Below are positions 20,700-37,610 of a stretch of DNA of 41,847 bases, piece by piece (position 1 is the stretch's first letter; the number at the start of each line of letters is the position of its first letter). This stretch comes from Burkholderiales bacterium (lineage in GTDB: Bacteria; Pseudomonadota; Gammaproteobacteria; Burkholderiales; SG8-41): assembly GCA_040081205.1 (NCBI GenBank), contig JBEBHE010000002.1, positions 1 through 41,847 of the forward strand. Direction: 5' to 3'. Under the pieces are notes generated by a model. That model did no database searches. It worked only from the letters and a program-made list of their open reading frames with translations, and was not told the origin of the DNA. The position numbers were made by a program, and so were the translations under genes.

Positions 20700-20822
20700 C
20701 AACCCCTCGCTACATCCCCAAATCGGGTGGCGAGCCTAACCCCCGGCACTTGCAGAGAATAGCTTTGGCTGCTTCCTTCCGGACCTGACCAGGTTCACTA
20801 CCATGCAATGCGGGGAGGCCCG
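20700..20822 (-). ncRNA. ffs: Signal recognition particle RNA (4.5S, small bacterial type); ends are approximate
   Basis: The minus strand reads ...GAACCUGGUCAGGUCCGGAAGGAAGCAGCCAAAGC..., which is the universally conserved SRP RNA domain IV (E. coli: ACCAGGUCAGGUCCGGAAGGAAGCAGCCAAGGC). Flanking segments CCCCGCAUUGCAU and AUGUAGCGAGGGG can pair to close the hairpin. The location upstream of dnaX is classic. Confidence 0.85.
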
Positions 20823-21061
20823 CCGTAAATCGTCAATACCGTATTGCAACTCTTAATAAATTAAATCGTAAGAATGACGTAAGTATATGCTAAATCAGGA
20901 GTTTTTACTACAGATATCAACCCCAACGACTTTACAAAATAGGCATTTAGTGTTTTTATCGCAACAATCAAAGAACAAAATCCCGTCCGCCCACGCATTA
21001 ATTAGGGTCAGCGCTCGCGGGATACGCAAATCCGTATAGTCATACCTTTCCGGAGGCATAT

Positions 21062-23029
21062 ATGTCCACGATCGAATCTGTATTAAGCGAAGAACGCCTG
21101 TTTCCACCCAGCGACGCGTTTATCAAACAGGCCAATATTTCAGGCATGGACGCCTACCGCAAGCTATGCGCCGAAGCCGAAAGTGACTTCGAAGGCTTTT
21201 GGGGCAACCTCGCGCGCAAGGAATTACTGTGGCAAAAGCCCTTCACCAAGACGCTAGATGAATCCAAAGCTCCGTTTTTCAAGTGGTTCGACGATGGCGA
21301 ATTGAATGCTTCATACAATTGCCTGGATCGGCACCTGAAAACACAACCAGACAAGATTGCGATTGTTTTCGAGGCCGATGATGGCAAGGTGAACACCATC
21401 ACCTACCGCGACTTGCATCGCGAAGTTTGCAAAGCGGCCAACGGTCTGAAGTCGCGCGGCATCCGGTTGGGCGACCGCGTCATTGTGTATATGCCAATGT
21501 CGATTGAGGCTGTGGTGTGCATGCAGGCCTGCGCACGCATCGGCGCGATTCATTCGGTAGTGTTCGGCGGCTTTTCTGCAAAAAGTTTGCAGGAACGCAT
21601 TATCGACGCTGGTGCGGTGGCGGTGCTGACCGCAGACGGGCAATTTCGTGGCGGACGTGAAATCCCGTTAAAGCCCGCTGTGGATGAAGCCCTCACGCTG
21701 GGTGGCTGCGAGTCCATTCACAGTGTCGTCGTTTACAAGCGCACCGGAACCACGGTTGCCTGGAATGCTAAACAAGATGTCTGGCTGCATGACCTGTTGA
21801 AAGACCAGTCCGAAACCTGCGAACCGACGTGGGTGAACGCGGAACATCCGCTGTTTATACTCTACACGTCCGGCTCTACTGGCAAGCCCAAAGGCATTCA
21901 ACATTCCACAGGTGGTTATTTGCTGTGGACTATCCTGACAATGAAGTGGACGTTTGACTACAAGCCGAGCGATGTGTTCTGGTGTACAGCGGATGTCGGC
22001 TGGGTGACCGGACATTCCTACGTTTGCTACGGCCCGCTGGCGTGCGGTGCGACCGAAGTTATTTTTGAAGGCGTGCCGGTTTACCCGGATGCCGGCCGTT
22101 TCTGGAAAATGATTCAGGACCACAAAGTCAGTGTGTTTTATACCGCACCGACGGCGATTCGTTCGCTGATCAAAGCCGGCGGCGATCTGCCCAAAAAATA
22201 TGACCTGAAAAGTCTTCGTATCCTGGGCACCGTGGGCGAGCCGATTAATCCCGAAGCGTGGATGTGGTACCACGAAACGGTTGGCGGCAGCCGTTGCCCG
22301 ATTGTCGATACCTGGTGGCAAACCGAAACCGGCGGACACATGATTACGCCGCTGCCGGGCGCCACGGCCACAAAACCGGGTTCAGCAACTTTTCCCCTTC
22401 CTGGCGTTATTGCCGATATTGTCGATGAAACCGGCCAATCGGTCGGCAGAGGCAAAGGCGGTATTCTGGTTATCAAAAAACCGTGGCCGTCGATGGTGCG
22501 CACGATTTGGGGCGATCCGGAGCGTTTCAAAAAAACCTACTACCCGGAAGATTTTCAGGGCAAGTATTACCTCGCCGGCGACGGCGCAACCTACGATTCC
22601 GAAGGCTACATTCGAATCATGGGGCGCATTGACGACGTGCTGAATGTATCGGGACATCGCCTTGGCACCATGGAAATCGAGTCCGCGCTCGTCGCCTATA
22701 AAGAACTTGTCGCCGAAGCGGCCGTAGTCGGACGCCCGGATGAACTTACTGGTGAAGCGATTTGCGCGTTCGTCGTGTTAAAGCGCTCGCGCCCCACCGG
22801 CGACGAGGCAAAGAAAATCGTCAAGGAATTGCAGGATTGGGTAGCCAAGGAAATTGGCCCCATCGCAAAGCCTCGCGACATTCGCTTCGGGGATAATCTG
22901 CCCAAGACACGTTCCGGAAAAATCATGCGTCGCCTCTTGCGCTCTATCGCCAAAGGCGAGGAAATTACGCAGGATGTTTCCACGCTGGAGAATCCGGCGA
23001 TCCTGGATCAGTTAAAACAACCGTTGTGA
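21062..23029 (+). CDS. acs: Acetyl-CoA synthetase (AMP-forming)
   Basis: The 655-aa protein has the AMP-binding motif [19 protein letters not shown] and YYLAGDGA. The C-terminus has [14 protein letters not shown] with the acetylatable Lys context. A GGAGG SD lies 7 nt upstream of the ATG. Confidence 0.97.
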
Positions 23030-23244
23030 GTCAGTCGAAGCCCATAGGCAACGAACAACGCGGGCAGCGCCTCGCGGCGTTGTTCCTGCTGGGTTGCTTG
23101 CTGTTCAACTACCCGCTGCTGCAATTGTTTGCGCGCGATGGCACCGTTCTGGGTATGCCGCTGCTCTATTGCTATGCTTTCGGCGCATGGGCCGTGTTAA
23201 TCGGGTTGATGGCGCTGGTGGTTGAACGCCGCGACCGCGACTAG
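23026..23244 (+). CDS. Small two-TM membrane protein resembling the DUF4212 symporter small subunit
   Basis: The 72-aa protein has two hydrophobic helices. A GTG start overlaps the acs stop (GTGA), and the gene ends 9 nt before the sensor kinase. It shares the pattern (F/Y)AR ... LG(M/F)PL ... Y ... G with the DUF4212 protein at 30269-30535. Confidence 0.6.
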
Positions 23245-23253
23245 GAAATCATT

Positions 23254-26046
23254 GTGCTAACCGGCGGCATTATCGTCGTCGCCTCGTTTGCCTACGTCGC
23301 CCTGCTGTTCGCCATCGCGGCTTACGGCGACAAGCGCGCCGATGCCGGGCGCAGCCTGATCGCCAATCCATACATTTACGCGCTGTCTTTGGCGGTGTAC
23401 TGCACGTCGTGGACCTTCTACGGCAGTGTCGGCCGTGCCGCGACATCGGGCATCGGCTTCCTGCCAATCTATCTCGGCCCGACATTGATGGCCGCGCTGT
23501 GGTGGTTTCTGCTGCTAAAAATGATACGCATCAGCAAGGCCAATCGCATCACCTCCATCGCCGACTTCGTTGCGTCGCGCTACGGCAAAAGCCAATTGCT
23601 CGGCGGACTGGTCACCATCATCGCGGTTATCGGCATCATTCCGTATATCGCGCTGCAATTAAAAGCGATCTCCACCAGTTTCTCCATCATCCTACACTAC
23701 CCGGGCGTCGCGATGCCTGAAAAACTCGGCGCGCAATTGTTCATCGGCGACAACACCTTTTATATCGCGATGATGCTGGCCGCGTTCACCATTCTGTTCG
23801 GCACGCGCCACCTGGATGCGACGGAGCGCCACGAAGGATTGGTCGCGGCGATTGCGTTTGAATCAGTAGTAAAACTGGTTGCCTTCATCGCCGTCGGTTT
23901 GTTTGTCACATACGGCATGTACAATGGCTTCACGGATATTTTTCAGCGCGCGCGCGAAAATCCGCAATTGCACGCGTTAATGGCCCAAGGCGGCGAATCC
24001 GGCAGTTACACGTCGTGGGCATCGCTGACGCTGCTGTCAATGTTTGCCATTCTGTTTTTGCCCCGCCAGTTTCAGGTTGCCGTGGTGGAAAATGTCGATG
24101 AGCGGCATTTAAACAAAGCGATCTGGCTGTTTCCGCTGTATTTACTCGTGATTAACATCTTTGTGCTGCCCATTGCGCTGGGCGGCCTGCTGCGGTTTCC
24201 CTCGGGCGGCGTCGATGCCGACACTTTTATGCTGACGCTGCCGATAGCCGAACAGCAGCCGTGGATCGCGTTACTCGCTTTCATCGGCGGCCTGTCCGCA
24301 GCGACGGGCATGGTGATCGTGGAAACCATCGCGCTATCAACGATGGTATGCAACGATCTGGTGATGCCGGTGCTGCTACGTTTACGCTGGCTGCGGCTTA
24401 CTGAACGGCGCGATTTGTCGCGCCTGCTACTGGGCATCCGACGCGGTGCAATTGTCGCAATACTGATGCTGGGCTATGTTTATTTTCATCTCGCCGGAGA
24501 GGCGTATGCTCTTGTTTCTATTGGATTAATATCGTTCTCTGCGGTAGCGCAATTTGCGCCCGCTATCATTGGCGGCCTGTTCTGGAAAGGCGGCAACCGG
24601 CTGGGGGCGATCTGTGGTTTGAGCGCGGGATTTCTGGTTTGGCTCTACACCCTGTTGCTGCCCTCCTTCGCAAAATCCGGCTGGCTACCCATTACATTTT
24701 TGTCGCAAGGCTTCGCGGGCATTGAACTGCTCAAACCGCAGCAACTTTTCGGATTGCAAGGCCTTGATGAAATTTCGCATTGTTTATTCTGGAGCTTGCT
24801 CGCCAATATCGGACTTTACGTTGCGATTTCTATGCTCCGCCGTCCCGACGCGTCGGAGCATAGACAGGCCGTGCTGTTCGTCGATGCCAATCGGCAGTCG
24901 CCCGCAGCGGGTTCGCGATTCTGGCGTGGCAGCGCGTCCATCAACGATTTGCTTGCGTTGTTGGGCCGTTTTCTCGGCCCGGCGCGCGCGCACGACGCCA
25001 TGACAGAATACGCGCGGCACCGCAGCGTGCAGACCATCGAAGCGATACCAGCAGACGCCGATACGGTTCATCATGCCGAGTCGCTGCTGGCCGGCGCTAT
25101 CGGCAGCGCCAGTGCAAGGGTCATGATGGCATCCGTTGTAGATGAAGAGCCGCTCGGCATTGACGAAGTTATGCACATCATCGACGAAGCATCGCAAGTG
25201 CTGGCCTACAGCCGGCAGCTTGAACGTCAATCACGCGAACTCGAAGCGGCGACCAACGACTTACGCAACGCCAACTCACGCTTAAAAGAACTTGACAGAC
25301 TGAAGGACGATTTCATTTCCACCGTCACGCATGAGTTGCGCACACCGCTGACCTCCATTCGCGCGTTTACCGAAATACTTCGCGACAATCCAAATTTAGC
25401 GCAAGTGCAGCGTGAGAATTTTCTGGGTATTGTCATTCGGGAATCCGAGCGCCTTACACGCCTTATCAATCAGGTGCTGGATCTGTCGAAAATCGAGTCC
25501 GGCAACGCGGAATGGCAATCGATTCAATTCGACATGCGCGATGTAATCAACGAATCCGCCTCTGCCGTTGGGCAGTTATTCCGCGACAGCGGCGTTACTT
25601 TGGCCATTCAACTTCCTGACGATGCGCCGGAAATCGTTGCTGACCGTGACCGCGTGATGCAAGTGATGTTGAACCTGCTGTCCAATGCAGCGAAATTCTG
25701 CGAAGCCGGCAAAGGCCAGGTTCGCGTCACACTCGCTTGCGAGCCCCATGCACTGCACGTGAATGTCATAGACAACGGCATTGGCATCAGCGCCGAGGAT
25801 CAGGCCGTGATATTCGACAAATTCCGGCAGGCCGGCGATACGCTGACGCAAAAGCCCAAAGGCAGCGGACTGGGTCTCGCGATCTCGCGCCAGATCATTG
25901 AGTTCCTTGGCGGCCGGCTCTGGGTTACCAGCCGCTTTGGTGACGGCGCAACCTTTTCGTTCACGCTTCCCATCAGCGGCGGGCACGTAGAACGACCATC
26001 ACAAATGAATGCGACCGAGTATGCCCAGGAAAATTCTCATCGTTGA
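23254..26046 (+). CDS. Sensor histidine kinase with an N-terminal sodium/solute symporter (SSS/SLC5) domain and STAC-like linker (CrbS/CbrA-like architecture)
   Basis: The 930-aa protein starts with ~520 aa of SSS-type TM helices (ITSIADFVASRYGKS, IPYIALQLKAIS). A STAC-like segment follows (AESLLAGAIGSASARVMMASV), then a coiled coil. The HisKA H-box is FISTVTHELRTPLTSI (His codon 25330-25332), and the HATPase has N, G1 and G2 boxes (LLSNAAKF, DNGIGI, GSGLGLAISRQI). I could recognise no PAS domain and no fused receiver. Confidence 0.9.
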   Translation: MLTGGIIVVASFAYVALLFAIAAYGDKRADAGRSLIANPYIYALSLAVYCTSWTFYGSVGRAATSGIGFLPIYLGPTLMAALWWFLLLKMIRISKANRITSIADFVASRYGKSQLLGGLVTIIAVIGIIPYIALQLKAISTSFSIILHYPGVAMPEKLGAQLFIGDNTFYIAMMLAAFTILFGTRHLDATERHEGLVAAIAFESVVKLVAFIAVGLFVTYGMYNGFTDIFQRARENPQLHALMAQGGESGSYTSWASLTLLSMFAILFLPRQFQVAVVENVDERHLNKAIWLFPLYLLVINIFVLPIALGGLLRFPSGGVDADTFMLTLPIAEQQPWIALLAFIGGLSAATGMVIVETIALSTMVCNDLVMPVLLRLRWLRLTERRDLSRLLLGIRRGAIVAILMLGYVYFHLAGEAYALVSIGLISFSAVAQFAPAIIGGLFWKGGNRLGAICGLSAGFLVWLYTLLLPSFAKSGWLPITFLSQGFAGIELLKPQQLFGLQGLDEISHCLFWSLLANIGLYVAISMLRRPDASEHRQAVLFVDANRQSPAAGSRFWRGSASINDLLALLGRFLGPARAHDAMTEYARHRSVQTIEAIPADADTVHHAESLLAGAIGSASARVMMASVVDEEPLGIDEVMHIIDEASQVLAYSRQLERQSRELEAATNDLRNANSRLKELDRLKDDFISTVTHELRTPLTSIRAFTEILRDNPNLAQVQRENFLGIVIRESERLTRLINQVLDLSKIESGNAEWQSIQFDMRDVINESASAVGQLFRDSGVTLAIQLPDDAPEIVADRDRVMQVMLNLLSNAAKFCEAGKGQVRVTLACEPHALHVNVIDNGIGISAEDQAVIFDKFRQAGDTLTQKPKGSGLGLAISRQIIEFLGGRLWVTSRFGDGATFSFTLPISGGHVERPSQMNATEYAQENSHR

Positions 26047-26389
26047 GGATGATCATAATATATTGATTTCATTAGATTTTTTAATGAGATCTGAAAACTA
26101 CGATACGCGCACGGCCGGTACCGGGAATGGAGCGCTTGCAATCGTTGGAGAATTCATCCCCGATTTGATACTGCTGGATGTGATGCTGCCTATGATGAAT
26201 GGCTTTGAGGTATGTCAAACCCTTCGTGCCAATCCAGCATTAAATGCACTGAAGATCGTTATGCTGACTGCCAAAGGCCGTGAATCCGAAATCGCAGAAG
26301 GCATGGCATCAGGAGCGGATGCCTACATCACCAAACCCTTTGCGACGCGCGACCTTGTGAAAATCGTAAAACAACTGCTGGGAGACTAG
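26021..26389 (+). CDS. Stand-alone receiver (CheY-like single-domain response regulator)
   Basis: The motifs are (M)PRKILIVEDD, phospho-acceptor context LILLDVMLP, conserved T (MLTAKG) and K (YITKPF). There is no output domain. It overlaps the kinase stop by 26 nt, or 38 nt if the ATG at 26009 is used. Confidence 0.85.
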   Translation: MPRKILIVEDDHNILISLDFLMRSENYDTRTAGTGNGALAIVGEFIPDLILLDVMLPMMNGFEVCQTLRANPALNALKIVMLTAKGRESEIAEGMASGADAYITKPFATRDLVKIVKQLLGD

Positions 26390-27904
26390 ATGCGGTCGCG
26401 TTTTGCGGCAGTGTGGGCGGTTTGTACAGGGCTGATCCTGTGTGGTGCGGCAAGCGTCTTGTTTGTATTGCATGGCGCCCTGGAACCGGCTGATCGCCTC
26501 ACGCTGCTTCGCATGCTCGCGGCAAACGTGACAGTACTCGTAATCCTGCTGATTTTTACGTGCGTGATTTCTGCATGGATAGCGAATTGGGTCATGCAAC
26601 ACTATGTCAAGCCATTGCACCGTTACGCTGACGGCATTGGATTGATCGCTGCTGGAAATCCGGCGTACCGGGTAGAAGCGGCGCCACCGGCGGAATTGCG
26701 GATCGTCGCTACCGCCATCAATGCATTGGCCGCTCGCCACGAAGCCACCTTGCGCGACGTTACCGCCCGTGTTCATGAAGCGCAGTCCAATTTGGAATTG
26801 GAGAAAAGCCATCTCGCCACGCTGATGTCGGAACTCGCGCAGAGTGTTGTGGTTTGCAATGCGCAAGGCGAAATCCTCCTCTATAACGAAAAAGCCCGCC
26901 ACTTGTTTTCATCCGTTCATGAAAGCACCGATGAAAAAGCCATGCCTTTTCTCGGGCTGGGTCGATCCATTTATGCATTAGCGGACCACGGTGCCGTACG
27001 TGCCGGTCTTGACGAACTGCGGCAACGACTGGCATCCAATGTGCCGAACCCGGTCGCTGATTTCACAATGCAGCTCGCAAACGGCAAAATCGCCCATGCG
27101 CGCATGGCACCGGCCCGGCATCAGGCTACCGCTTCCCCAACACCTGCGACCGAAATCGATGGTTTTGTATTATTGCTGACTGCCGTCAACGCCGAACATG
27201 AAGCACGGCCCTCCCGCCATTCGGAAACATTCGCGCCAACGGGTCGTCCCGTCTATTACGACTTCGACCTTTTTCATCAGGCCGGACAGACCAAGGAAAT
27301 AGAAGACCGCCCGCTATCGAAGATCGTCTACACCGCGTTCGACACCGAGACGACAGGACTTGAGCCGTCCTCTGGAGATGAAATCATCGCCATAGGCGCA
27401 ATCAGACTCGTCAATGGCCGGCTGCTGCATCAGGAACAATTCTCAAAACTTATTGATCCCCGTCGCCCGCTTTCGCCGGAATCCATTGCCATCCACGGCA
27501 TTACACCGGAGATGCTGCGCGGAAAGCCCACCATAGAGAAAGTGATCCCCGCTTTTTATCAATTCTGTGAAGACACCGTATTGCTGGGGCACAATGCGGC
27601 ATTTGATATGCGTTTTCTCGAGATAAAACAGCGGCAGACGGGAATAAAATTCACGCAGCCAGTGCTCGACACTCTGCTACTTTCTGCCGTGTTGCACGGC
27701 ACCTTGCAGGCCCATGGTCTTGATGCGATCGCGTTGCGCCTCGGCGTGGCTGTAGTGGATCGCCACAGCGCCATCGGGGACGCCGTAACCACCGCGCAGA
27801 TTTTCCTTAAACTGCTGCCCCTGCTTTCGCAGCGCGGCATTGTCACGCTTAGACAGGCTCGCGAAGCGTCCGCGACTACGTCCTATGCCCGACTTCGATA
27901 CTGA
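26390..27904 (+). CDS. Membrane-anchored HAMP-PAS protein with a C-terminal DEDDh (DnaQ/PolIII-epsilon-like) 3'-5' exonuclease domain
   Basis: The 504-aa protein has two N-terminal TM helices with a very short loop. A HAMP-like segment follows (KPLHRYADGIGLIAAGNPAYRV...AINALAARHEA), then a PAS-like segment (LMSELAQSVVVCNAQGEILLYNEKARHLF). The exonuclease motifs are ExoI FDTETTGL, ExoII GHNAAFDMRFL and ExoIII HSAIGDAVTTA. The ATG abuts the receiver stop (TAGATG). Confidence 0.85.
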   Translation: MRSRFAAVWAVCTGLILCGAASVLFVLHGALEPADRLTLLRMLAANVTVLVILLIFTCVISAWIANWVMQHYVKPLHRYADGIGLIAAGNPAYRVEAAPPAELRIVATAINALAARHEATLRDVTARVHEAQSNLELEKSHLATLMSELAQSVVVCNAQGEILLYNEKARHLFSSVHESTDEKAMPFLGLGRSIYALADHGAVRAGLDELRQRLASNVPNPVADFTMQLANGKIAHARMAPARHQATASPTPATEIDGFVLLLTAVNAEHEARPSRHSETFAPTGRPVYYDFDLFHQAGQTKEIEDRPLSKIVYTAFDTETTGLEPSSGDEIIAIGAIRLVNGRLLHQEQFSKLIDPRRPLSPESIAIHGITPEMLRGKPTIEKVIPAFYQFCEDTVLLGHNAAFDMRFLEIKQRQTGIKFTQPVLDTLLLSAVLHGTLQAHGLDAIALRLGVAVVDRHSAIGDAVTTAQIFLKLLPLLSQRGIVTLRQAREASATTSYARLRY

Positions 27905-29300
27905 ACAGATAGATCCGCCGCTCAGCGGGCTGATGCGCGCCGCGCCGGTATCTTGCCTGCCGGATACGCGTGTGGAAACCGTATTGAGCATCATGAAAGA
28001 CAAGCGTATTGGCTCCATGATCGTCACCGACCCTCAAATGAGACCCATCGGCATTTTGACGCTGCGTGATGTCCTGGACCGGATCGCACTTGCGCCCGGC
28101 GCTTTGCAAATGCCCATTGAGCGCGTGATGTCGCGTCACCCCTTGTGCATCCCGGTTGACAGCAGTGCCTATCAGGCATCGCTTGCCATGATTCGGCACG
28201 GCGTCAATCACATCATCGTGGTTAAAAACGAACTGCTTGCGGGACTCGTTTCGGCCCGGGATCTATTTGGCCTGCAACATAGCAGCGTAAAAACCCTATC
28301 CACAGCCATCCGCAGTGCGCACGATCTTGGCGCTATTGAAGCATTCGGTCGCGACATTGGCGTTCTTTCGCGCAAAATGCTTGCTCAGGGCATCGCAACA
28401 GGGCCGCTTTGCGCTTTTATCGCCTCACTCAACGATCTGCTGACACAACGCATCGTGGAAATGGAGTTCCGCGACGTGTCCATTCCCTATTGCTGGATAC
28501 TCATGGGCAGCGAAGGGCGCTCTGAACAAACGCTGGTCACCGATCAAGACAACGGCCTGATCTTTTCGCCGGCGGACGGCAGCGATCCCGAAGTAGCGCG
28601 CCAGGAATTACTGACGGTTGCGCGCCGCATCAACCTGGCCCTTGATCGTGCCGGTTATCAGCTCTGCCCCGGCGATATCATGGCCGGGAATCCGCGATGG
28701 TGTCTGACCTTGAACGAGTGGCGCAGCCGGTTTCAGCATTGGATCGCCTCCGGTGATCCTCAGGCAATATTACACGGCATGATATTTTTCGACCTCAGAC
28801 CACTGCACGGTGAAACCATGCTTGCGCAGCACCTGCGGGATTGGATAACGGAGAATGCGCGGCACAGCCAGCGATTCCTGCACCTGATGGCTCAAGGCGC
28901 GTTGAAGAATGGCGCCCCCCTTGGATTGCTGGGACGATTCAAACTGGATGCCGGCGGTTACCTCGACCTTAAAATCAACGGAACAACCCTGTTCACAGAC
29001 GCAGGCCGCATCTTTGCACTGGCGGCCGGGATTGACGAAACCAACACGGAACGCAGATTGCGCAGAGCAGGCACTGCGCTCAATATTCCGCTGGATGAAA
29101 TTGAAGCATGGATTGCGGCGTACTACTGCTTGCAAGGACTCAGGCTTCGAATGCAGGCAGCGGCGTTGGCGAGCGGAGGCTCAGCCGACAACCGATTGGC
29201 GCCCAGGCAGTTGCATGCGTTTGATCGCGAGGTTCTCACCCTGGCATTTCATCAAGCCACTAAGTTGCAGAAACGACTCCGCATGGAATACAGTGCTTGA
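27885..29300 (+). CDS. CBS-pair / DUF294-type putative nucleotidyltransferase (GlnD-like Pol-beta fold) with a DUF294_C-type helical domain
   Basis: Two CBS modules are present (VETVLSIMKDKRIGSMIV...GILTLRDVL; ASLAMIRHGVNHIIV...GLVSARDL). The NTase motif GSEGRSEQTLVTDQDNGLIF (nt 28506-28565) parallels the glnD motif in this same window. I call the start at ATG 27885, a 20-nt overlap with the exonuclease gene; the ORF is open from 27840. Confidence 0.85.
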   Translation: MPDFDTEQIDPPLSGLMRAAPVSCLPDTRVETVLSIMKDKRIGSMIVTDPQMRPIGILTLRDVLDRIALAPGALQMPIERVMSRHPLCIPVDSSAYQASLAMIRHGVNHIIVVKNELLAGLVSARDLFGLQHSSVKTLSTAIRSAHDLGAIEAFGRDIGVLSRKMLAQGIATGPLCAFIASLNDLLTQRIVEMEFRDVSIPYCWILMGSEGRSEQTLVTDQDNGLIFSPADGSDPEVARQELLTVARRINLALDRAGYQLCPGDIMAGNPRWCLTLNEWRSRFQHWIASGDPQAILHGMIFFDLRPLHGETMLAQHLRDWITENARHSQRFLHLMAQGALKNGAPLGLLGRFKLDAGGYLDLKINGTTLFTDAGRIFALAAGIDETNTERRLRRAGTALNIPLDEIEAWIAAYYCLQGLRLRMQAAALASGGSADNRLAPRQLHAFDREVLTLAFHQATKLQKRLRMEYSA

Positions 29301-29330: not shown

Positions 29331-30002
29331 CTAGGGAATTTCCTGCTCAAGCAAGTAGCCGCGCCCATAGATAGTACGCACCGCCACGCCGCTGCCGTCC
29401 AGCTTCTTCCTGAGGCGATGCACGTAGACCTCGATAGCGTTATGCGTCACCTCTTTGTCATAGCTGTAGAGTAATTCGACCAATTGCTCCTTGCTGACTA
29501 CACGCCCAAAGCGTCTCAACAAAATTTCCAGTACGCCGGATTCGTGCAGCGAAAGCGGCAGCGCTTTTCCTTGTACACTAGCGAGCCGTGACACCGTATC
29601 GAAGGCTAAATTTCCATATTGCAAGGTCGGAGATGCATCTCCTGCACCGCGACGCAACAGCGCGCGCACGCGCGCCTTCAGTTCATCCTGGCTAAATGGT
29701 TTGACCAGATAGTCGTCCGCACCAAGGTCGAGACCGATGACCTTTTCTTCAGACTGTTCACGCCCCGACAATATCAGCACAGGCAGCGTGGTATTACGCT
29801 TGCGCAGCCGGCGCAGCACCTCAAAGCCATCCAGTTTGGGTAGCCCCAAGTCAAGGATCAGCAGGCCAAAGCCATCACCTTTGAGTGCTTCATCCGCAGC
29901 AAGCCCATGCTCTACATGGTCAACCGCATAGCCCGCTTGGCTCAGCGAAAAACGCAACGCCTCTGACAGCGCCGCATCATCCTCCGCAATCAGAATTCGC
30001 AA
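29331..30002 (-). CDS. OmpR/PhoB-family winged-helix response regulator
   Basis: The receiver has (M)RILIAEDD, LLILDLGLP and YLVKPF. The winged-helix output has VEVYVHRLRKKL and RTIYGRGYLL. I call the start at TTG 30000-30002, preceded by a GGGGGAG SD; the ORF is open to 30047. Confidence 0.9.
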   Translation of the reverse strand: MRILIAEDDAALSEALRFSLSQAGYAVDHVEHGLAADEALKGDGFGLLILDLGLPKLDGFEVLRRLRKRNTTLPVLILSGREQSEEKVIGLDLGADDYLVKPFSQDELKARVRALLRRGAGDASPTLQYGNLAFDTVSRLASVQGKALPLSLHESGVLEILLRRFGRVVSKEQLVELLYSYDKEVTHNAIEVYVHRLRKKLDGSGVAVRTIYGRGYLLEQEIP

Positions 30003-30068
30003 TCGACTCCCCCAGAATCTTACCGCAAGAATGCTGTGCCGCAACAAAACTGCGGATTGAAAAATAAC

Positions 30069-30268: not shown

Positions 30269-30535
30269 GTGCAACCTAGCGCAAAACACCAGGAATACTG
30301 GCGAAAAAATCTGGTCATTACGGCGATATTGCTTGTGATTTGGTTTGTTGTCACTTTCATTGAAGGGTGGTACGCCCGTGAACTGAACAGCATGACCTTC
30401 CTCGGATTTCCTCTCGGCTTCTACATGTCCGCGCAAGGCTCGCTAGCGATTTACGTGATCATTATTGGTTTCTACGCGATGTTCATGAAGAAACTCGACA
30501 AAGAGTACGGCGTTGACGAAGGAGACCTCGAATGA
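30269..30535 (+). CDS. DUF4212-type small subunit of a sodium:solute symporter
   Basis: The 88-aa two-TM protein has a GTG start preceded by an AAGGAGG SD. Its stop overlaps the ATG of the large SSS subunit (ATGA), the characteristic small/large subunit pairing of the VC_2705-type symporter family. Confidence 0.85.
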   Translation: MQPSAKHQEYWRKNLVITAILLVIWFVVTFIEGWYARELNSMTFLGFPLGFYMSAQGSLAIYVIIIGFYAMFMKKLDKEYGVDEGDLE

Positions 30536-32607
30536 GCCAAGCCACCAGTCACAGCGCATTTAACTCGCAGCTGAAAAAGTATTATACGTTCTACACTGGC
30601 GGATTCATCGCGTTTCTGATTTTCCTGGCCATTGCCGAGCAAATGGGCATGTCCAGGGCGATGATCGGCTACGTTTTTCTTGCCGCGACCATAGGCCTGT
30701 ATGCCGGCATCGGCATCATGAGCCGTACTGCGGAGGTATCGGAGTATTACGTCGCGGGCCGCCGGGTTCCAGCGTTCTTCAACGGCATGGCGACCGGCGC
30801 GGACTGGATGAGCGCGGCATCCTTCATCGGCATGGCGGGCACGCTGTATCTGTCGGGATTTGATGGCTTGGCCTTCGTCATGGGCTGGACCGGCGGCTAC
30901 TGTCTGGTAGCGTTTTTGCTGGCCCCCTATCTGCGCAAATTTGGGCAATTCACTATTCCCGACTTTCTGGGCGCGCGTTATGGCGGCAATATCATCCGCT
31001 CCATCGGCGTGATTGCCGCCATCACCTGTTCGTTTGTTTATGTGGTGGCGCAAATCTACGGCGTGGGCCTCATTACCAGTCGCTTCACGGGGTTGGAGTT
31101 CGGCGTAGGCGTGTATGTCGGCCTCGCAGGCATCCTCGTTTGCTCGATGCTCGGCGGCATGAAAGCCGTCACGTGGACACAGGTGGCACAGTACATCATT
31201 CTGATCATCGCCTATATGACGCCGGTGGTGTGGTTGGGCATCAAGCATACCGGCATCCCCGTGCCGCAAGTCGCTTACGGCCCTGTGCTGCAAAAGGTGG
31301 GCGACCTTGAAAAGAAAATCACCGCTGACCCGAAAGAGATCGAAGTTCGCAATATCTTCAAGGATCGCGCCGCTACCGCCAACGCAGGTTTGAAAGATCC
31401 GGCCAAGGTGTACGGTGAAGGCAAGGCCAAGCTTGAGAAAGCGGTCGCTGACGCCAAGGGCGTGGAGCCTGCGGATACGGCCAAAGTAGCCGCAGCGGAA
31501 AAGGCGCTGGCCGCGTATCCGAAAGACGAAGCAGCGGCAAAGGCACAGTGGAACAAGGACAAAGGCCTCGCTGCGCGTGCCGCGCCGCCAAGACCGCATG
31601 CCGATCCTTATCCGGGCAAGGACGAAGACGCACGCTTCACCGCCAAACTCAATTTTCTTGGCATAGTGTTTTGCATGATGTTCGGTACCGCAGCATTGCC
31701 GCATATCCTGATGCGTTACTACACCACGCCCAGCGTGCAGCAGGCGCGTGTGTCGGTATTCTGGTCACTGTTTTTCATCTTCCTGCTCTATTTCACCGCC
31801 CCTTGCCTCGCCGTGCTGGCGAAGTTCGATGTCTACAGCAACTTGGTGGGCAGTAGTTTTTCGTCGTTACCTGCATGGGCGGCGGCGTGGGCAAAAGTTG
31901 ATCCAACTCTGCTGAGTATTGTTGACATCAACATGGACGGCATAGTGCAACTCGCGGAAATTGTGATTGGCGGCGACTTGATTGTGTTGGCAACGCCCGA
32001 AATCGCCGGCCTGCCTTATGTGGTATCCGGGCTGGTTGCTGCCGGTGGCCTTGCTGCCGCGCTTTCTACTGCAGACGGGCTGCTGCTAACCATCGCCAAC
32101 GCGCTGTCGCACGATCTCTACTACAAGATGATTGACCCGCAAGCCAGTACCAAAACACGCGTGACCATCTCTAAAGTGCTGTTGATCTTTGTTGCGGGCG
32201 TTGCCGCATTCGTCACATCACTCAAACCTGGTGACATTCTGTTCCTGGTGGGCGCGGCGTTCTCGCTGGCGGCTTCGGCATTCTTCCCGCCGCTGGTCAT
32301 GGGCGTATTCTGGAAACGCGCCAACAAGTGGGGTGCTATCGTTGGAATGCTGGCCGGATTAGGCGTGTGCATGTATTACATGATGCGCACCTATCCGTTC
32401 TTCACCAATATGGGCGTACCGAAGATGGATCTCTGGTTTGGCCTTAATCCGATCTCGGCAGGTGTGTTTGGTTTGCCGATTGGCCTGCTGACCATCTTCA
32501 TCGTGAGCCTGCTGACGGCACCGCCCGATGCGGAAACGCAAAAGTTGGTCGAACACGTGCGTTACCCGAATCTGGTTGGCGACACTTACCAATCGCAAGC
32601 GACCTAG
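30532..32607 (+). CDS. Sodium:solute symporter large subunit (SSS family, VC_2705-like; probable monocarboxylate/acetate-type transporter)
   Basis: The 691-aa multi-TM protein has SSS hallmarks (YYVAGRRVPAFFNGMATGADWMSAASFIG, TIPDFLGARYG). It contains a ~119-aa hydrophilic Ala/Lys/Glu-rich insertion. The substrate is not determinable from sequence. Confidence 0.9.
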   Translation: MSQATSHSAFNSQLKKYYTFYTGGFIAFLIFLAIAEQMGMSRAMIGYVFLAATIGLYAGIGIMSRTAEVSEYYVAGRRVPAFFNGMATGADWMSAASFIGMAGTLYLSGFDGLAFVMGWTGGYCLVAFLLAPYLRKFGQFTIPDFLGARYGGNIIRSIGVIAAITCSFVYVVAQIYGVGLITSRFTGLEFGVGVYVGLAGILVCSMLGGMKAVTWTQVAQYIILIIAYMTPVVWLGIKHTGIPVPQVAYGPVLQKVGDLEKKITADPKEIEVRNIFKDRAATANAGLKDPAKVYGEGKAKLEKAVADAKGVEPADTAKVAAAEKALAAYPKDEAAAKAQWNKDKGLAARAAPPRPHADPYPGKDEDARFTAKLNFLGIVFCMMFGTAALPHILMRYYTTPSVQQARVSVFWSLFFIFLLYFTAPCLAVLAKFDVYSNLVGSSFSSLPAWAAAWAKVDPTLLSIVDINMDGIVQLAEIVIGGDLIVLATPEIAGLPYVVSGLVAAGGLAAALSTADGLLLTIANALSHDLYYKMIDPQASTKTRVTISKVLLIFVAGVAAFVTSLKPGDILFLVGAAFSLAASAFFPPLVMGVFWKRANKWGAIVGMLAGLGVCMYYMMRTYPFFTNMGVPKMDLWFGLNPISAGVFGLPIGLLTIFIVSLLTAPPDAETQKLVEHVRYPNLVGDTYQSQAT

Positions 32608-33607: not shown

Positions 33608-33699
33608 GGAGAGATGGATGAGTGGTTTAAGTCGCACGCCTGGAAAGCGTGTGTACGGTGAAAGCCGTACCGTGGGTTCGAATCCCACTCTCTCCGCCA
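33608..33699 (+). tRNA. tRNA-Ser (anticodon GGA), with encoded CCA
   Basis: The acceptor stem pairs GGAGAGA with TCTCTCC. The anticodon arm is CACGC-CUGGAAA-GCGUG, the long variable arm is GUACGGUGAAAGCCGUAC and the T-arm is GTGGG-TTCGAAT-CCCAC. It closely parallels E. coli tRNA-Ser(GGA). Confidence 0.95.
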
Positions 33700-35711: not shown

Positions 35712-37610
35712 TTATTTTATAGCGAGTGCACTCTTGATCTGATCCAGCGCAGCAGGGTCTTCAATCGTCGTGAGATCTCCCGGATCGCGTCCTTCGGCCA
35801 GCGCCTGTATGGAGCGCCGCAGCAATTTCCCGGAGCGCGTCTTGGGCAGCAGTGTCACGAAATGCACGCGCGACGGCCTGCCAATCGCGCCGAGTTGTTT
35901 GTCCACTGCCTCCATCACCTCCTTTTCCTGCACGGCTTTGAGTTCAGGGGTAGCGATTTTTGCGCCGTCTTTCAATACGACAAACGCAAGCGGCATCTGC
36001 CCCTTGATGGAATCGACTACGCCGACCACGGCAACCTCGGCCACATTAGCGTGAGACTGCACGGCTTCTTCGATCTCCCGTGTGCCCAGGCGATGGCCGG
36101 CGACGTTGATCACATCATCCGTACGGCCGAGTATGTAGTGATAGCCGTCCTTGTCGCGGATGCCCCAATCGAACGTGGAATAAACCTGCTTGCTGCGGAA
36201 GCTGGTGAAATAGGTATTCACAAACCGTTCGTCGTCGCCCCACACGGTCGTCATACAACCCGGTGGCAATGGCGGAACGATGCCGACCACACCCTTTTCA
36301 TCCGCATCAGCCTCACTGGCATCCGATTCGCGCAGAATTTGCAGATCGTAGCCGTATACCGGAAAGCTCGGCGTGCCGAGTTTGATCGACGTTTTCTCGA
36401 CACCATGCATCGCCGACAAAATGGGCCAGCCGGTTTCGGTTTGCCAATAGTGATCGATCACCGGTTTTTTTAACGCGTCTGCAATCCAGCGATGCGTCGG
36501 TTCATCCAGCGGTTCGCCCGCGAGAAACAGATGGCGCAACGACGACAGATCGTATTTTGTGAGGTACAGCGGATCCTGTTTTTTCAACACGCGCGCAGCG
36601 GTCGGTGACGAAAACATCACTGAAACCTTGTGGTCGGCGACAATTTTCCACCAGATGCCCGCATCGGGGCGTATCGGCAGCCCTTCATACAATATCGTTG
36701 TCATGCCTGTGATCAGCGGCGCATACACAATGTATGAATGCCCGACAACCCAACCAATGTCCGAAGTTGTGAACATGGTTTCGCCCGCGTTGCCGCAATA
36801 AATGTGCTTCATCGACGCGGCCAGAGCGACTGCGTAGCCGCCGGTGTCGCGCTGCACGCCTTTGGGGCGACCGGTCGTCCCTGATGTATACAGAATGTAG
36901 GAAGGGTCGCTCGACTCCAGCCAGGTCACCGGCGTATTCACATTGGCGTGCGCCTTGCGCAGCGTCGCGTAATCCAGATCGCGTCCGGCAACAGGTTTAA
37001 AATCCTTGTCGATACCTCGATTGACGACGATCACATTGCGCGGCGGATGCTTGGCGAGCCTCATCGCTTCGTCTACCAAAGGCTTGTACGGAATTGCACG
37101 TCCACCTCGCATGCCTGCATCGGCGGTAATCATCAGCGCCGGCTTGGCGTCGTCGATGCGCGTGGCGAGGCTTGCCGCTGCAAATCCGCCGAACACCACC
37201 GAGTGAATGGCGCCGACACGTGCGCATGCCAGCATTGCGAACACTGCCTCGGGGATCATCGGCATGTAGATCAACACACGATCGCCCTTGCCCACGCCTA
37301 ACGTGATTAGCATGGCTGCCGCGCGATTGACCTCTTTGTAGAGTTCGCGATAGGTGTAGGTTTTTTCCTGCCCGGTTTCGGTCGAAATATAGATCAGCGC
37401 TTTCTGATCACCGCGCGCAGTGAGATGCCGGTCTATCGCGTTGTGACACAGATTGGTTTCGCCGCCCACAAACCACTTGGCGAACGGTGGGCGTGAAAAA
37501 TCGCAGACCTGGGAAAACGGCTTGTGCCAGTCAATCAGCGCCGACTGCTCGGCCCAGAATCCATCACGCTCCTGGAGCGAGCGTTTGTGAAATTCCTGAT
37601 AGGCGCCCAT
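35712..37610 (-). CDS. prpE: Propionate--CoA ligase (acyl-CoA synthetase, PrpE-like)
   Basis: The 632-aa protein has the PrpE-type N-terminus YQEFHKRSLQERDGFWAEQ, the AMP motif YTSGTTGRPKG, YWQTETGWP and C-terminal PKTRSGKLLRR. It is distinct from the acs copy at 21062. Confidence 0.85.
   Translation of the reverse strand: MGAYQEFHKRSLQERDGFWAEQSALIDWHKPFSQVCDFSRPPFAKWFVGGETNLCHNAIDRHLTARGDQKALIYISTETGQEKTYTYRELYKEVNRAAAMLITLGVGKGDRVLIYMPMIPEAVFAMLACARVGAIHSVVFGGFAAASLATRIDDAKPALMITADAGMRGGRAIPYKPLVDEAMRLAKHPPRNVIVVNRGIDKDFKPVAGRDLDYATLRKAHANVNTPVTWLESSDPSYILYTSGTTGRPKGVQRDTGGYAVALAASMKHIYCGNAGETMFTTSDIGWVVGHSYIVYAPLITGMTTILYEGLPIRPDAGIWWKIVADHKVSVMFSSPTAARVLKKQDPLYLTKYDLSSLRHLFLAGEPLDEPTHRWIADALKKPVIDHYWQTETGWPILSAMHGVEKTSIKLGTPSFPVYGYDLQILRESDASEADADEKGVVGIVPPLPPGCMTTVWGDDERFVNTYFTSFRSKQVYSTFDWGIRDKDGYHYILGRTDDVINVAGHRLGTREIEEAVQSHANVAEVAVVGVVDSIKGQMPLAFVVLKDGAKIATPELKAVQEKEVMEAVDKQLGAIGRPSRVHFVTLLPKTRSGKLLRRSIQALAEGRDPGDLTTIEDPAALDQIKSALAIK

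Follow-up and report, generated by a model that had tools for sequence, protein, structure and literature searches.

What does a DEDDh exonuclease do at the end of a protein that is otherwise built like a membrane signalling receptor? The question is raised by a gene at 26390..27904 (+ strand) of a 41,847-nucleotide (nt) stretch of DNA from a Burkholderiales bacterium (GCA_040081205.1, contig JBEBHE010000002.1, positions 1-41,847), hereafter the window, which encodes a protein of 504 amino acids (aa). An earlier note, drawn from the sequence alone, had read this protein as two transmembrane (TM) helices, a HAMP domain, a coiled coil, a PAS domain and a DEDDh exonuclease, and this order, with a flexible linker of ~30 aa ahead of the exonuclease, was borne out by hydropathy, by an AlphaFold2 model, by an RNase_T profile match and by HAMP and PAS matches in orthologues. 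What is new here is that the protein is the short form of a large pseudo-histidine-kinase-exonuclease family encoded in acetate-uptake operons. As to its role, we tentatively propose, with a probability that we put at roughly 40%, that the exonuclease acts as a membrane-tethered hydrolytic 'eraser', paired with a DUF294 'writer' encoded by the next gene, which would tune monocarboxylate uptake and assimilation.

The outputs catalogued for receptors of this kind are kinases, cyclases, phosphodiesterases, methyl-accepting domains and DNA-binding domains; DEDDh exonucleases are not among them. The individual domains are known and thousands of copies exist under generic names, but the combination is undescribed: in agreement with the note, which knew of no function for such an architecture, our literature search found no description of a HAMP/PAS-exonuclease or a pseudo-kinase-exonuclease. 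Solving the family would explain the DUF294/exonuclease genes of the CrbS/R regulon, would give DUF294 a function and would reveal the use of a conserved dead histidine kinase. Its place in an operon for acetate and short-chain fatty-acid assimilation makes it relevant to wastewater phosphorus removal (Accumulibacter), denitrifiers and pathogens, and the short form found in the window is a natural minimal combination of sensor and nuclease, suited to biochemistry.

A complete DEDDh exonuclease domain with family-specific flanks

The exonuclease domain (27317..27874, + strand) was assigned from Pfam, from its fold and from its catalytic residues. RNase_T matched residues 316-472 with an E-value of 1.3e-36 and 127 bits (cut-off 24), TIGR00573 scored 121.7 bits, above its cut-off of 71.5, and the AlphaFold2 model, which was built from an input of 120 homologues and reached a mean predicted local distance difference test (pLDDT) score of 85.5, shows an RNase-H-like domain at 310-495. 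The catalytic residues are found where the earlier reading had placed them, namely D318 and E320 in FDTETTG (nt 27341-27349), D406 in HNAAFDMRF, and H459 and D464 in HSAIGDA. All five are invariant in the 120 homologues and the Exo I, II and III motifs are complete, so that the domain is predicted from its sequence to be a catalytically intact 3'-5' exonuclease of the DnaQ/PolC type.

By sequence, the best solved relatives are the PolC-type exonuclease of T. maritima (2p1j, E=8e-41) and then the epsilon subunit, and the Foldseek matches include PolC, the DinG exonuclease and epsilon, with a TM-score of ~0.85 when normalised to epsilon. The domain shares its fold and its five catalytic residues with the PolC and DnaQ epsilon domains (2p1j, 9qpc, 1j53/2ido) and with the N-terminal exonuclease of DinG (8zef), at ~30% identity to epsilon; it differs from all of these in not belonging to a polymerase or helicase, in being membrane-anchored and in possessing a motif and a C-terminal tail of its own. 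The scores of the DnaQ and PolC equivalog models were missed (TIGR01406, 106 versus 222.7 bits; PRK05711, 107 versus 196; PolC, 146 versus 873). Nor does the protein have the build of a soluble replisome subunit or of a polymerase fusion, its architecture being that of a membrane-anchored sensor encoded within a metabolic operon.

Both flanking elements were recognised in the alignment. The motif RPVYYDFDLF (27245..27274, + strand) stands directly ahead of the exonuclease fold; R286, P287, Y290, D291, F292 and L294 are invariant in the 120 sequences, and variants of the family form RPxYYDFDLF are retained in distant members from Geobacter, Rhizobium and Ruegeria. The tail, ...T.YAR[IL]RY (27875..27901, + strand), reads ...YARLRY in the window protein, and its final Tyr504 is invariant in the 120 sequences, other endings being found in a few distant members. 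The tyrosines of these two elements could be modification or docking sites. DFDLF also loosely resembles QL[SD]LF, the consensus for binding to the sliding clamp.

Membrane anchor and sensor module

The ATG of the exonuclease gene comes immediately after the TAG of the preceding gene, which encodes a receiver (REC) protein, and is preceded by GGGAGA; the open reading frame (ORF) at 26390-27904 is a real, conserved gene, a chance ORF being excluded. Kyte-Doolittle windows above 1.6 are confined to residues ~5-34 and ~36-70, and the model has N-terminal helices at 2-30, 33-45 and 47-88, a 12-residue connector at 89-100 and a long helix at 101-150. TM helix 1 (residues ~5-29; 26402..26476, + strand) lies within the first of these helices, and TM helix 2 (residues ~45-68; 26522..26593, + strand) follows after a short loop that contains the amphipathic helix 33-45. 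Both hydropathy and the model leave ~12-15 aa between the two, in keeping with the earlier remark that there is almost no periplasmic loop, and this is as short as in intramembrane-sensing receptors of the BceS/LiaS kind. Kinases of that kind also have a minimal extracytoplasmic loop, and a loop of this length would suit a signal that is received by way of the membrane or of a partner. The positive residues that flank the cytoplasmic sides of the TM helices fit an N-in/C-in topology. The hairpin is an inner-membrane anchor, and HAMP, coiled coil, PAS and exonuclease are all cytoplasmic.

The HAMP domain (residues ~69-120; 26594..26749, + strand) was delimited from homologue profiles, from the model and from conserved columns, and comprises AS1, the connector GNPxxR and AS2 (AELRxxAxAINxLA). 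Profile support for the HAMP and PAS assignments of the earlier note came from homologues and not from the window protein itself. In the latter, PF00672 scored 13.9 bits, below its cut-off of 25, whereas two aligned homologues (P0004 and P0062) scored 32.7 and 33.2 bits, both above it; among 15 orthologues, 3 had a HAMP match at E<=0.001. The modelled geometry is that expected of a HAMP domain, placed after the last TM helix and predicted to consist of two amphipathic helices around a connector of ~12-14 residues. P75 is nearly invariant among the short forms, where E102 is invariant, and the latter is also nearly invariant in the alignment of 120 sequences; in our own reading, these correspond to the proline of AS1 and the glutamate at the start of AS2 that are usually conserved in HAMP domains. 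The coiled coil, or signalling helix, that joins HAMP to PAS (residues ~121-150; 26750..26839, + strand) is part of the modelled helix 101-150 and gave weak profile matches to the helix-PAS junction of VicK/WalK. As inferred from the HAMP domain and the coiled coil, the protein is probably a dimer.

The cytoplasmic PAS domain (residues ~151-266; 26840..27187, + strand) was assigned from orthologue profiles and from its modelled fold. Pfam returned no direct PAS match in the window protein, but PF00989 (PAS) and PF08448 (PAS_4) each matched 8/15 full-length orthologues at E<=0.001, and two orthologues of 52-55% identity that were scanned singly scored 34.5 and 31 bits with PF00989 (cut-off 22.6). 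Residues 152-265 were modelled, with a pLDDT mostly above 80, as an antiparallel sheet (strands 152-157, 161-165, 223-229, 234-242 and 258-265) plus helices (167-174 and 200-215), and the invariant motifs of the domain are SELAQSVVVCN..G.ILLYN and GLGRS.

Between PAS and exonuclease lies a variable linker of low confidence (residues ~267-285; 27188..27244, + strand; pLDDT 31-39). In the model the low-confidence stretch covers 268-288 and is followed by no regular secondary structure up to ~300, and a model of a longer relative (see below) likewise has its nuclease after a low-confidence linker. With these ~30 residues in between, the nuclease is more likely to hang on a tether than to be driven, like a kinase or a cyclase, by a rigid helix. 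Of the earlier proposal that the nuclease is the output of a signalling module, the receptor layout stands.

A short form of a large pseudo-kinase-exonuclease family

A database search returned ~8000 relatives, which go under no other names than 'DNA polymerase III subunit epsilon' and 'exonuclease domain-containing protein', and a relative is encoded in at least 589 GTDB species hits. The usual member is ~715-730 aa long and carries, in comparison with the window protein, an insert of ~215 aa between PAS and exonuclease, which alignments and the long-form model place at the site of the linker. In that model (P0004, pLDDT 79), a helical hairpin (268-341) is followed by an alpha/beta domain (349-487), and the best Foldseek matches are WalK (4.7e-20), VicK (6.6e-15), LOV-kinase chimeras, ThkA, HK853 and DivL; those to WalK, VicK and the LOV kinases span 380-480 aligned columns and so extend beyond the kinase core alone. 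When compared by hhalign with the family of the neighbouring kinase, the profile of the insert was aligned to the DHp-CA part (probability 98.4%, E=7e-15). The position of the phosphorylated histidine is occupied in 104 long forms by Glu (86) or Gln (15) and in none by His, the N-box Asn is replaced by Arg in 94/104, and the G1 Asp by Trp in 104/104. The insert thus reads as a complete but dead histidine-kinase core and, since it has the fold of a kinase core and its catalytic residues are replaced, the common form of the family is 2TM-HAMP-PAS-pseudoDHp-pseudoCA-DEDDh. The dead core, carried by P0004, P0009, P0017 and others (loci L004-L080; L083, 7540-9660), specifically resembles the DHp-CA of the kinase whose gene lies two genes upstream.

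Both the alignment and the AlphaFold2 model indicate that DHp and CA are absent from the window protein, which is a minority short form of this family. WalK/VicK-type kinases (2TM-HAMP-PAS-DHp-CA) have the same N-terminal layout, and the long forms match them across sensor and kinase core; the window protein, unlike them, has no DHp or CA and carries a nuclease as its output. Kinase cores that lack the histidine and bind a receiver or another kinase are known from DivL (4q20) and RetS, a comparison that concerns the long forms only, and neither of these proteins has a nuclease. A sensor and a (pseudo)kinase that control a C-terminal nuclease are found in the eukaryotic proteins RNase L and, at the membrane, Ire1; this is an analogy only, as the folds are unrelated (a Ser/Thr-kinase-like domain with a KEN/HEPN endoribonuclease versus a histidine-kinase-like core with a DEDDh exonuclease).

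In a search of 1.84 billion representative proteins clustered at 50% identity, the sensor module (residues 1-285) matched 822 clusters when the limit was E<=0.001 and 489 when it was E<=1e-10. Among the best 150 matches, 84 were complete proteins, of which ~74 were long forms, 9 were short forms and 1 had only DHp-like helices. The matches without an exonuclease within these 150 were all below 545 aa, shorter than the complete proteins, and resemble fragments from contig ends; for this reason the sensor module seems to be specific to this nuclease.

A neighbour-joining tree shows the 15 closest short forms as a monophyletic group, a pattern consistent with the pseudo-kinase having been lost once in that clade. 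Separate reductions are represented by the short forms of Geobacter and Desulfuromonadales, by Desulfobacterales proteins with only DHp-like helices and by alphaproteobacterial proteins of 479-562 aa. Four short forms from Pelotalea, Geobacter and Desulfuromonadaceae (L001, L002, L003 and L010) have a Cys/His-rich insert in PAS, FSFHCxQHxECxxCxRR, which resembles a metal or redox site and which the window protein does not have.

Conserved linkage to DUF294, a sensor kinase and a symporter

The exonuclease gene is part of a tightly packed operon of abutting or overlapping frames that runs from acs, for acetyl-CoA synthetase (21062..23029, + strand), to a gene for a CBS-DUF294 protein. Upstream of the exonuclease are encoded a 930-aa histidine kinase (23254..26046, + strand) and a stand-alone, REC-only response regulator (26009..26389, + strand), the stop of which abuts the exonuclease start. 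Downstream follows the CBS-pair/DUF294/DUF294_C protein (27885..29300, + strand), a putative nucleotidyltransferase (NTase) that the earlier note had correctly placed next to the exonuclease; the two genes overlap by 20 nt, and its Pol-beta signature GSEGRSEQTLVTDQD is intact. DUF294_C has been grouped with the C-terminal domains of GlnD and GlnE (PMC3710099). This protein is not itself the PII uridylyltransferase GlnD, a possibility ruled out because a canonical GlnD (NTase, GlnD_UR_UTase, HD and ACT domains) is encoded elsewhere in the window (666..3254, + strand). Beyond a convergent regulator gene lie a DUF4212/TIGR03647 symporter small subunit (30269..30535, + strand) and an ActP-related Na+/solute symporter of the VC_2705 family (30532..32607, + strand; TIGR03648, 772 bits).

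The linkage of the exonuclease to these genes recurs across proteobacteria, and its conservation was assessed in 80 loci from GTDB species representatives, 48 of which had at least 7 kb on both sides. REC was encoded immediately upstream of the exonuclease in 54/73 loci, the kinase upstream in 46/65 and DUF294 immediately downstream in 39/64. Within the 48 well-flanked loci, the kinase was present in 39, REC in 38, DUF294 in 34 and either DUF294 or the symporter in 39, and 6 had none of these. The three short-form loci compared, that of the window and those of two orthologues in other assemblies, have the same gene order. In Paracoccus denitrificans PD1222, DUF294, an 81-aa ORF, the histidine kinase, REC and the exonuclease (706 aa, WP_011751332.1) form one overlapping operon, and Cupriavidus necator carries a copy as well; Thauera, Azoarcus, Accumulibacter and Geobacter are further hosts.

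A different context was found in the alphaproteobacteria Rhizobium oryzihabitans and Ruegeria sp. TM1040, whose loci read DUF4212-SSS-DUF294-(172-174-aa protein)-2TM-HAMP-PAS-exonuclease, kinase and REC being absent. It follows that DUF294 and the symporter recur in both contexts, and that the kinase and REC do not. In these loci the 172-174-aa protein (L084, 5452-5976; L086, 5742-6260), encoded after DUF294 and ahead of the exonuclease, stands where the kinase and REC are encoded elsewhere; its Rhizobium copy had no Pfam match, and its Ruegeria copy has a hydrophobic N-terminus. Matches in Vibrio, Acinetobacter and Aeromonas had no DUF294 neighbour, and a plasmid collection searched for an exonuclease of the PP_0353 type (see below) adjoining DUF294 yielded only membrane-anchored family members, PolC and unrelated DEDDh genes. 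In one metagenome-assembled genome of an uncultured beta proteobacterium (L021), two tandem exonuclease-DUF294-DUF4212-symporter units lie within ~16 kb, which indicates a duplication of the module.

A similar gene pair in Pseudomonas

The closest published counterpart is the Pseudomonas operon of PP_0354 (cNMP-CBS-DUF294, cNMP being cyclic nucleotide monophosphate) and PP_0353 (an RNase_T-family exonuclease), which is directly activated by MxtR/ErdR, the equivalent of CrbS/CrbR (PMC9927547; PMC9765439; bioRxiv 10.64898/2026.09.07.749794). In P. aeruginosa, homologues of both genes adjoin actP and yjcH, the cluster PA3232-PA3235 including a putative ActP (PMC9927547). Deletion of the exonuclease gene impaired growth on pyruvate, as did deletion of actP-I or yjcH, and deletion of PP_0354 did not; the phenotypes on pyruvate and propionate were mild, and the authors call the function of PP_0353 and PP_0354 unknown (bioRxiv 10.64898/2026.09.07.749794; PMC9927547). 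Some further literature matches to 'DUF294' turned out to be DUF2946 and were discarded.

The gene set of the window fits this PP_0353-type arrangement, in that an RNase_T exonuclease and a CBS-DUF294 protein are linked to acs and to a monocarboxylate symporter; in both systems the DUF294 protein is paired with a DEDDh exonuclease, in the setting of acs/actP and a transporter-type sensor kinase. The differences are several. PP_0353 is described as RNase_T only, with no secretion signal reported, and the window exonuclease adds two TM helices, HAMP and PAS; PP_0354 has a cNMP-binding domain that the DUF294 protein of the window does not have; the symporter of the window is of the VC_2705 type with DUF4212, as opposed to ActP/YjcH; and its response regulator is of the OmpR type, unlike that of Pseudomonas.

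A proposed writer and eraser

The reading that we favour, at the probability given above, sees the two overlapping genes as encoding opposed activities. A macromolecule at the membrane (the side chain of a protein, the 3' end of an RNA, or an oligonucleotide) would receive a single nucleotide or several from the CBS-gated DUF294 protein, and the tethered DEDDh domain would take them off as nucleoside 5'-monophosphates (5'-NMPs). As there is no room for a periplasmic ligand site, the TM hairpin may serve to position the enzyme beside the transporter-like kinase or the symporter, whose state it could perhaps also signal, in the way that intramembrane-sensing kinases work with their transporters; PAS would add a cytoplasmic metabolite input, and the net outcome would be a tuned uptake and assimilation of monocarboxylates. 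The chemistry is compatible with known enzymes: DEDDh enzymes cut an R-O-P bond and release a 5'-NMP; oligonucleotides extended at the 3' end contain such a bond, as does, in formal terms, a Tyr-O-NMP adduct; and NTases of the MNT type, which belong to the same superfamily, oligo-AMPylate a protein tyrosine (MntA/HepT). GlnD/GlnE and MntA-HepT are likewise systems in which a protein tyrosine is modified by an NTase of the Pol-beta type that has a helical domain for substrate binding, and in which the nucleotide is taken off by a separate activity; removal is performed by an HD domain in GlnD and by a second NTase domain in GlnE, and is not known to be performed by a DEDDh exonuclease. The pyruvate pattern in Pseudomonas would be expected if an inhibitory writer were opposed by an activating eraser, and by this analogy the phenotypes fit the proposal, indirectly and incompletely.

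Several points weigh against it. The TM helix sequences are poorly conserved, among the 15 short forms as in the 120 homologues, and lend no support to a specific intramembrane partner; the nearest kin of the exonuclease domain are DNA-proofreading domains; DUF294 is missing from the 10 kb around the gene in 14 of the 48 well-flanked loci; and in Thauera, Azoarcus and related loci the symporter, instead of DUF294, is directly downstream of the exonuclease. No substrate is known for DUF294, nor for the exonucleases of this family, and no DEDDh enzyme is known to de-nucleotidylylate a protein. PP_0353, moreover, was likened to the window exonuclease by its published description only, and growth on propionate was reduced by both Pseudomonas deletions, which is no simple antagonism (bioRxiv 10.64898/2026.09.07.749794; PMC9927547).

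A narrower version of the proposal, which we regard as rather doubtful, is a signal-gated de-nucleotidylylase: DUF294 would mono- or oligo-nucleotidylylate a membrane protein of the acetate module, candidates being the VC_2705/ActP-type symporter, the transporter-like kinase or a partner, and the DEDDh domain would strip the nucleotides, the dead kinase acting in most species as a scaffold. If true, carboxylate uptake would be under a post-translational and reversible switch, operated by an 'exonuclease' that acts on a protein-nucleotide adduct. Both candidate substrates put forward in the earlier note, a nucleotide-based signal and a nucleotidylyl-protein adduct, are plausible. More generally, the family probably takes part in some form of regulation.

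The alternative that survives best, possible if on balance unlikely, is a membrane-localised regulatory RNase that would act independently of DUF294, trimming or degrading mRNA or small RNA (e.g. those of acs, the symporter or actP) from the 3' end under the control of HAMP and PAS. RNase T, Orn and ERI-type RNases are among the DEDDh fold matches, an Rv2179c-like exoribonuclease profile was found in 9/15 orthologues, and membrane-tethered bacterial RNases are known; the resemblance of the Pseudomonas exonuclease mutant to a transporter-deficient strain could be accommodated as well (bioRxiv 10.64898/2026.09.07.749794). However, the best matches in sequence and structure are DNA-proofreading domains, Rfam found no RNA element in the operon, and an RNase of this kind would leave the conserved translational coupling with DUF294 unexplained.

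In a further reading, DUF294 would produce an oligonucleotide, linear or cyclic, as a messenger, and the exonuclease would degrade this messenger or pNpN/nanoRNA, as Orn does with pGpG or as CD-NTase-associated exonucleases might. DUF294 is an NTase of the Pol-beta superfamily with an intact motif and regulatory CBS domains, some of its relatives reach ~600 aa and so have room for an extra N-terminal domain, the exonuclease Cap18 of CBASS (7t2s) is among the fold matches, and PP_0354 has been reported with a cNMP-binding domain (bioRxiv 10.64898/2026.09.07.749794). We nevertheless consider the termination of a small-nucleotide signal quite unlikely: PADLOC gave only generic DEDDh-domain matches for the exonuclease and none for DUF294, the locus holds no gene resembling a receptor or effector for a messenger, the domain is not Orn-like in sequence, and the degradation of a diffusible signal needs no membrane tether. 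A role in anti-phage defence (CBASS Cap18 or a Cas-associated DEDDh nuclease) was rejected given the lack of PADLOC support and the metabolic context.

Slightly less probable still is that the sensor and pseudo-kinase act as a two-component regulator or scaffold, binding REC as DivL binds DivK~P or pairing with the kinase in a heterodimer after the manner of RetS and GacS, with a secondary part for the nuclease. The kinase and REC are encoded directly upstream in ~75-80% of loci, it is the DHp-CA of the neighbouring kinase family that the long-form core specifically resembles, and the Foldseek matches include complexes of DivL and of HK853-RR468. Yet the clade of the window protein has lost DHp-CA while keeping REC upstream and the nuclease residues, alphaproteobacterial members have no kinase or REC nearby, and none of the 120 aligned members departs from the catalytic pentad. 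For the window protein, docking of REC on a pseudo-DHp was rejected, as the short clade without DHp still keeps REC. Finally, an ordinary DNA proofreading or repair exonuclease, possibly recruited to the clamp through DFDLF, would agree with the nearest domain relatives (PolC, epsilon and the DinG exonuclease) and with the database name of the family, but is highly improbable given the scores far off the DnaQ/PolC equivalog cut-offs, the membrane anchor with HAMP and PAS, the lack of the canonical Gln of the clamp motif and the conserved neighbours, which are acs, symporter and signalling genes and none for replication, dnaX being separate and on the other strand.

The transporter-like kinase and other features of the window

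The 930-aa kinase consists of a multi-TM N-terminus of ~540 aa followed by HisKA and HATPase_c. The earlier note had called it an SSS kinase; a transporter-like kinase is indeed encoded upstream of the exonuclease, and the SSS part of the name held only in part, since a Pfam scan of the N-terminus gave no match at all, SSF included, and the relation to the VC_2705 symporter family found by hhalign (probability 96%) is confined to the last TM segments. The designation 'SSS-like kinase' is plausible on this evidence and partly shown. The kinase ends without a receiver domain, and REC is encoded by a gene of its own that comes next; in this respect the kinase differs from the CrbS/MxtR kinases, which are hybrid kinases. 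Its DNA-binding partner is probably the OmpR/TctD-type response regulator encoded convergently after DUF294 (29331..30047, - strand).

Between acs and the kinase lies a 72-aa membrane ORF (23026..23244, + strand) which overlaps the acs stop, has two hydrophobic stretches and gave a weak DUF3311 match (E=0.024). Counterparts in the same position before the kinase have 73 aa (L081 and L082) or 81 aa (P. denitrificans). This ORF may encode a small subunit of the transporter-like sensor domain of the kinase, in parallel to DUF4212 and its symporter.

The remainder of the window is ordinary chromosome with glnD, ligA, zipA, smc, dnaX, a signal recognition particle (SRP) RNA and lpdA. A PagL gene and the SRP RNA separate dnaX from the operon. 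The only Rfam matches in the window were this bacterial small SRP RNA, between the PagL gene and acs (20726..20824, - strand; 79.8 bits), and a tRNA downstream of a TPR gene (33608..33696, + strand). A second Acs-like acyl-CoA synthetase is encoded at 35712..37610 (- strand).

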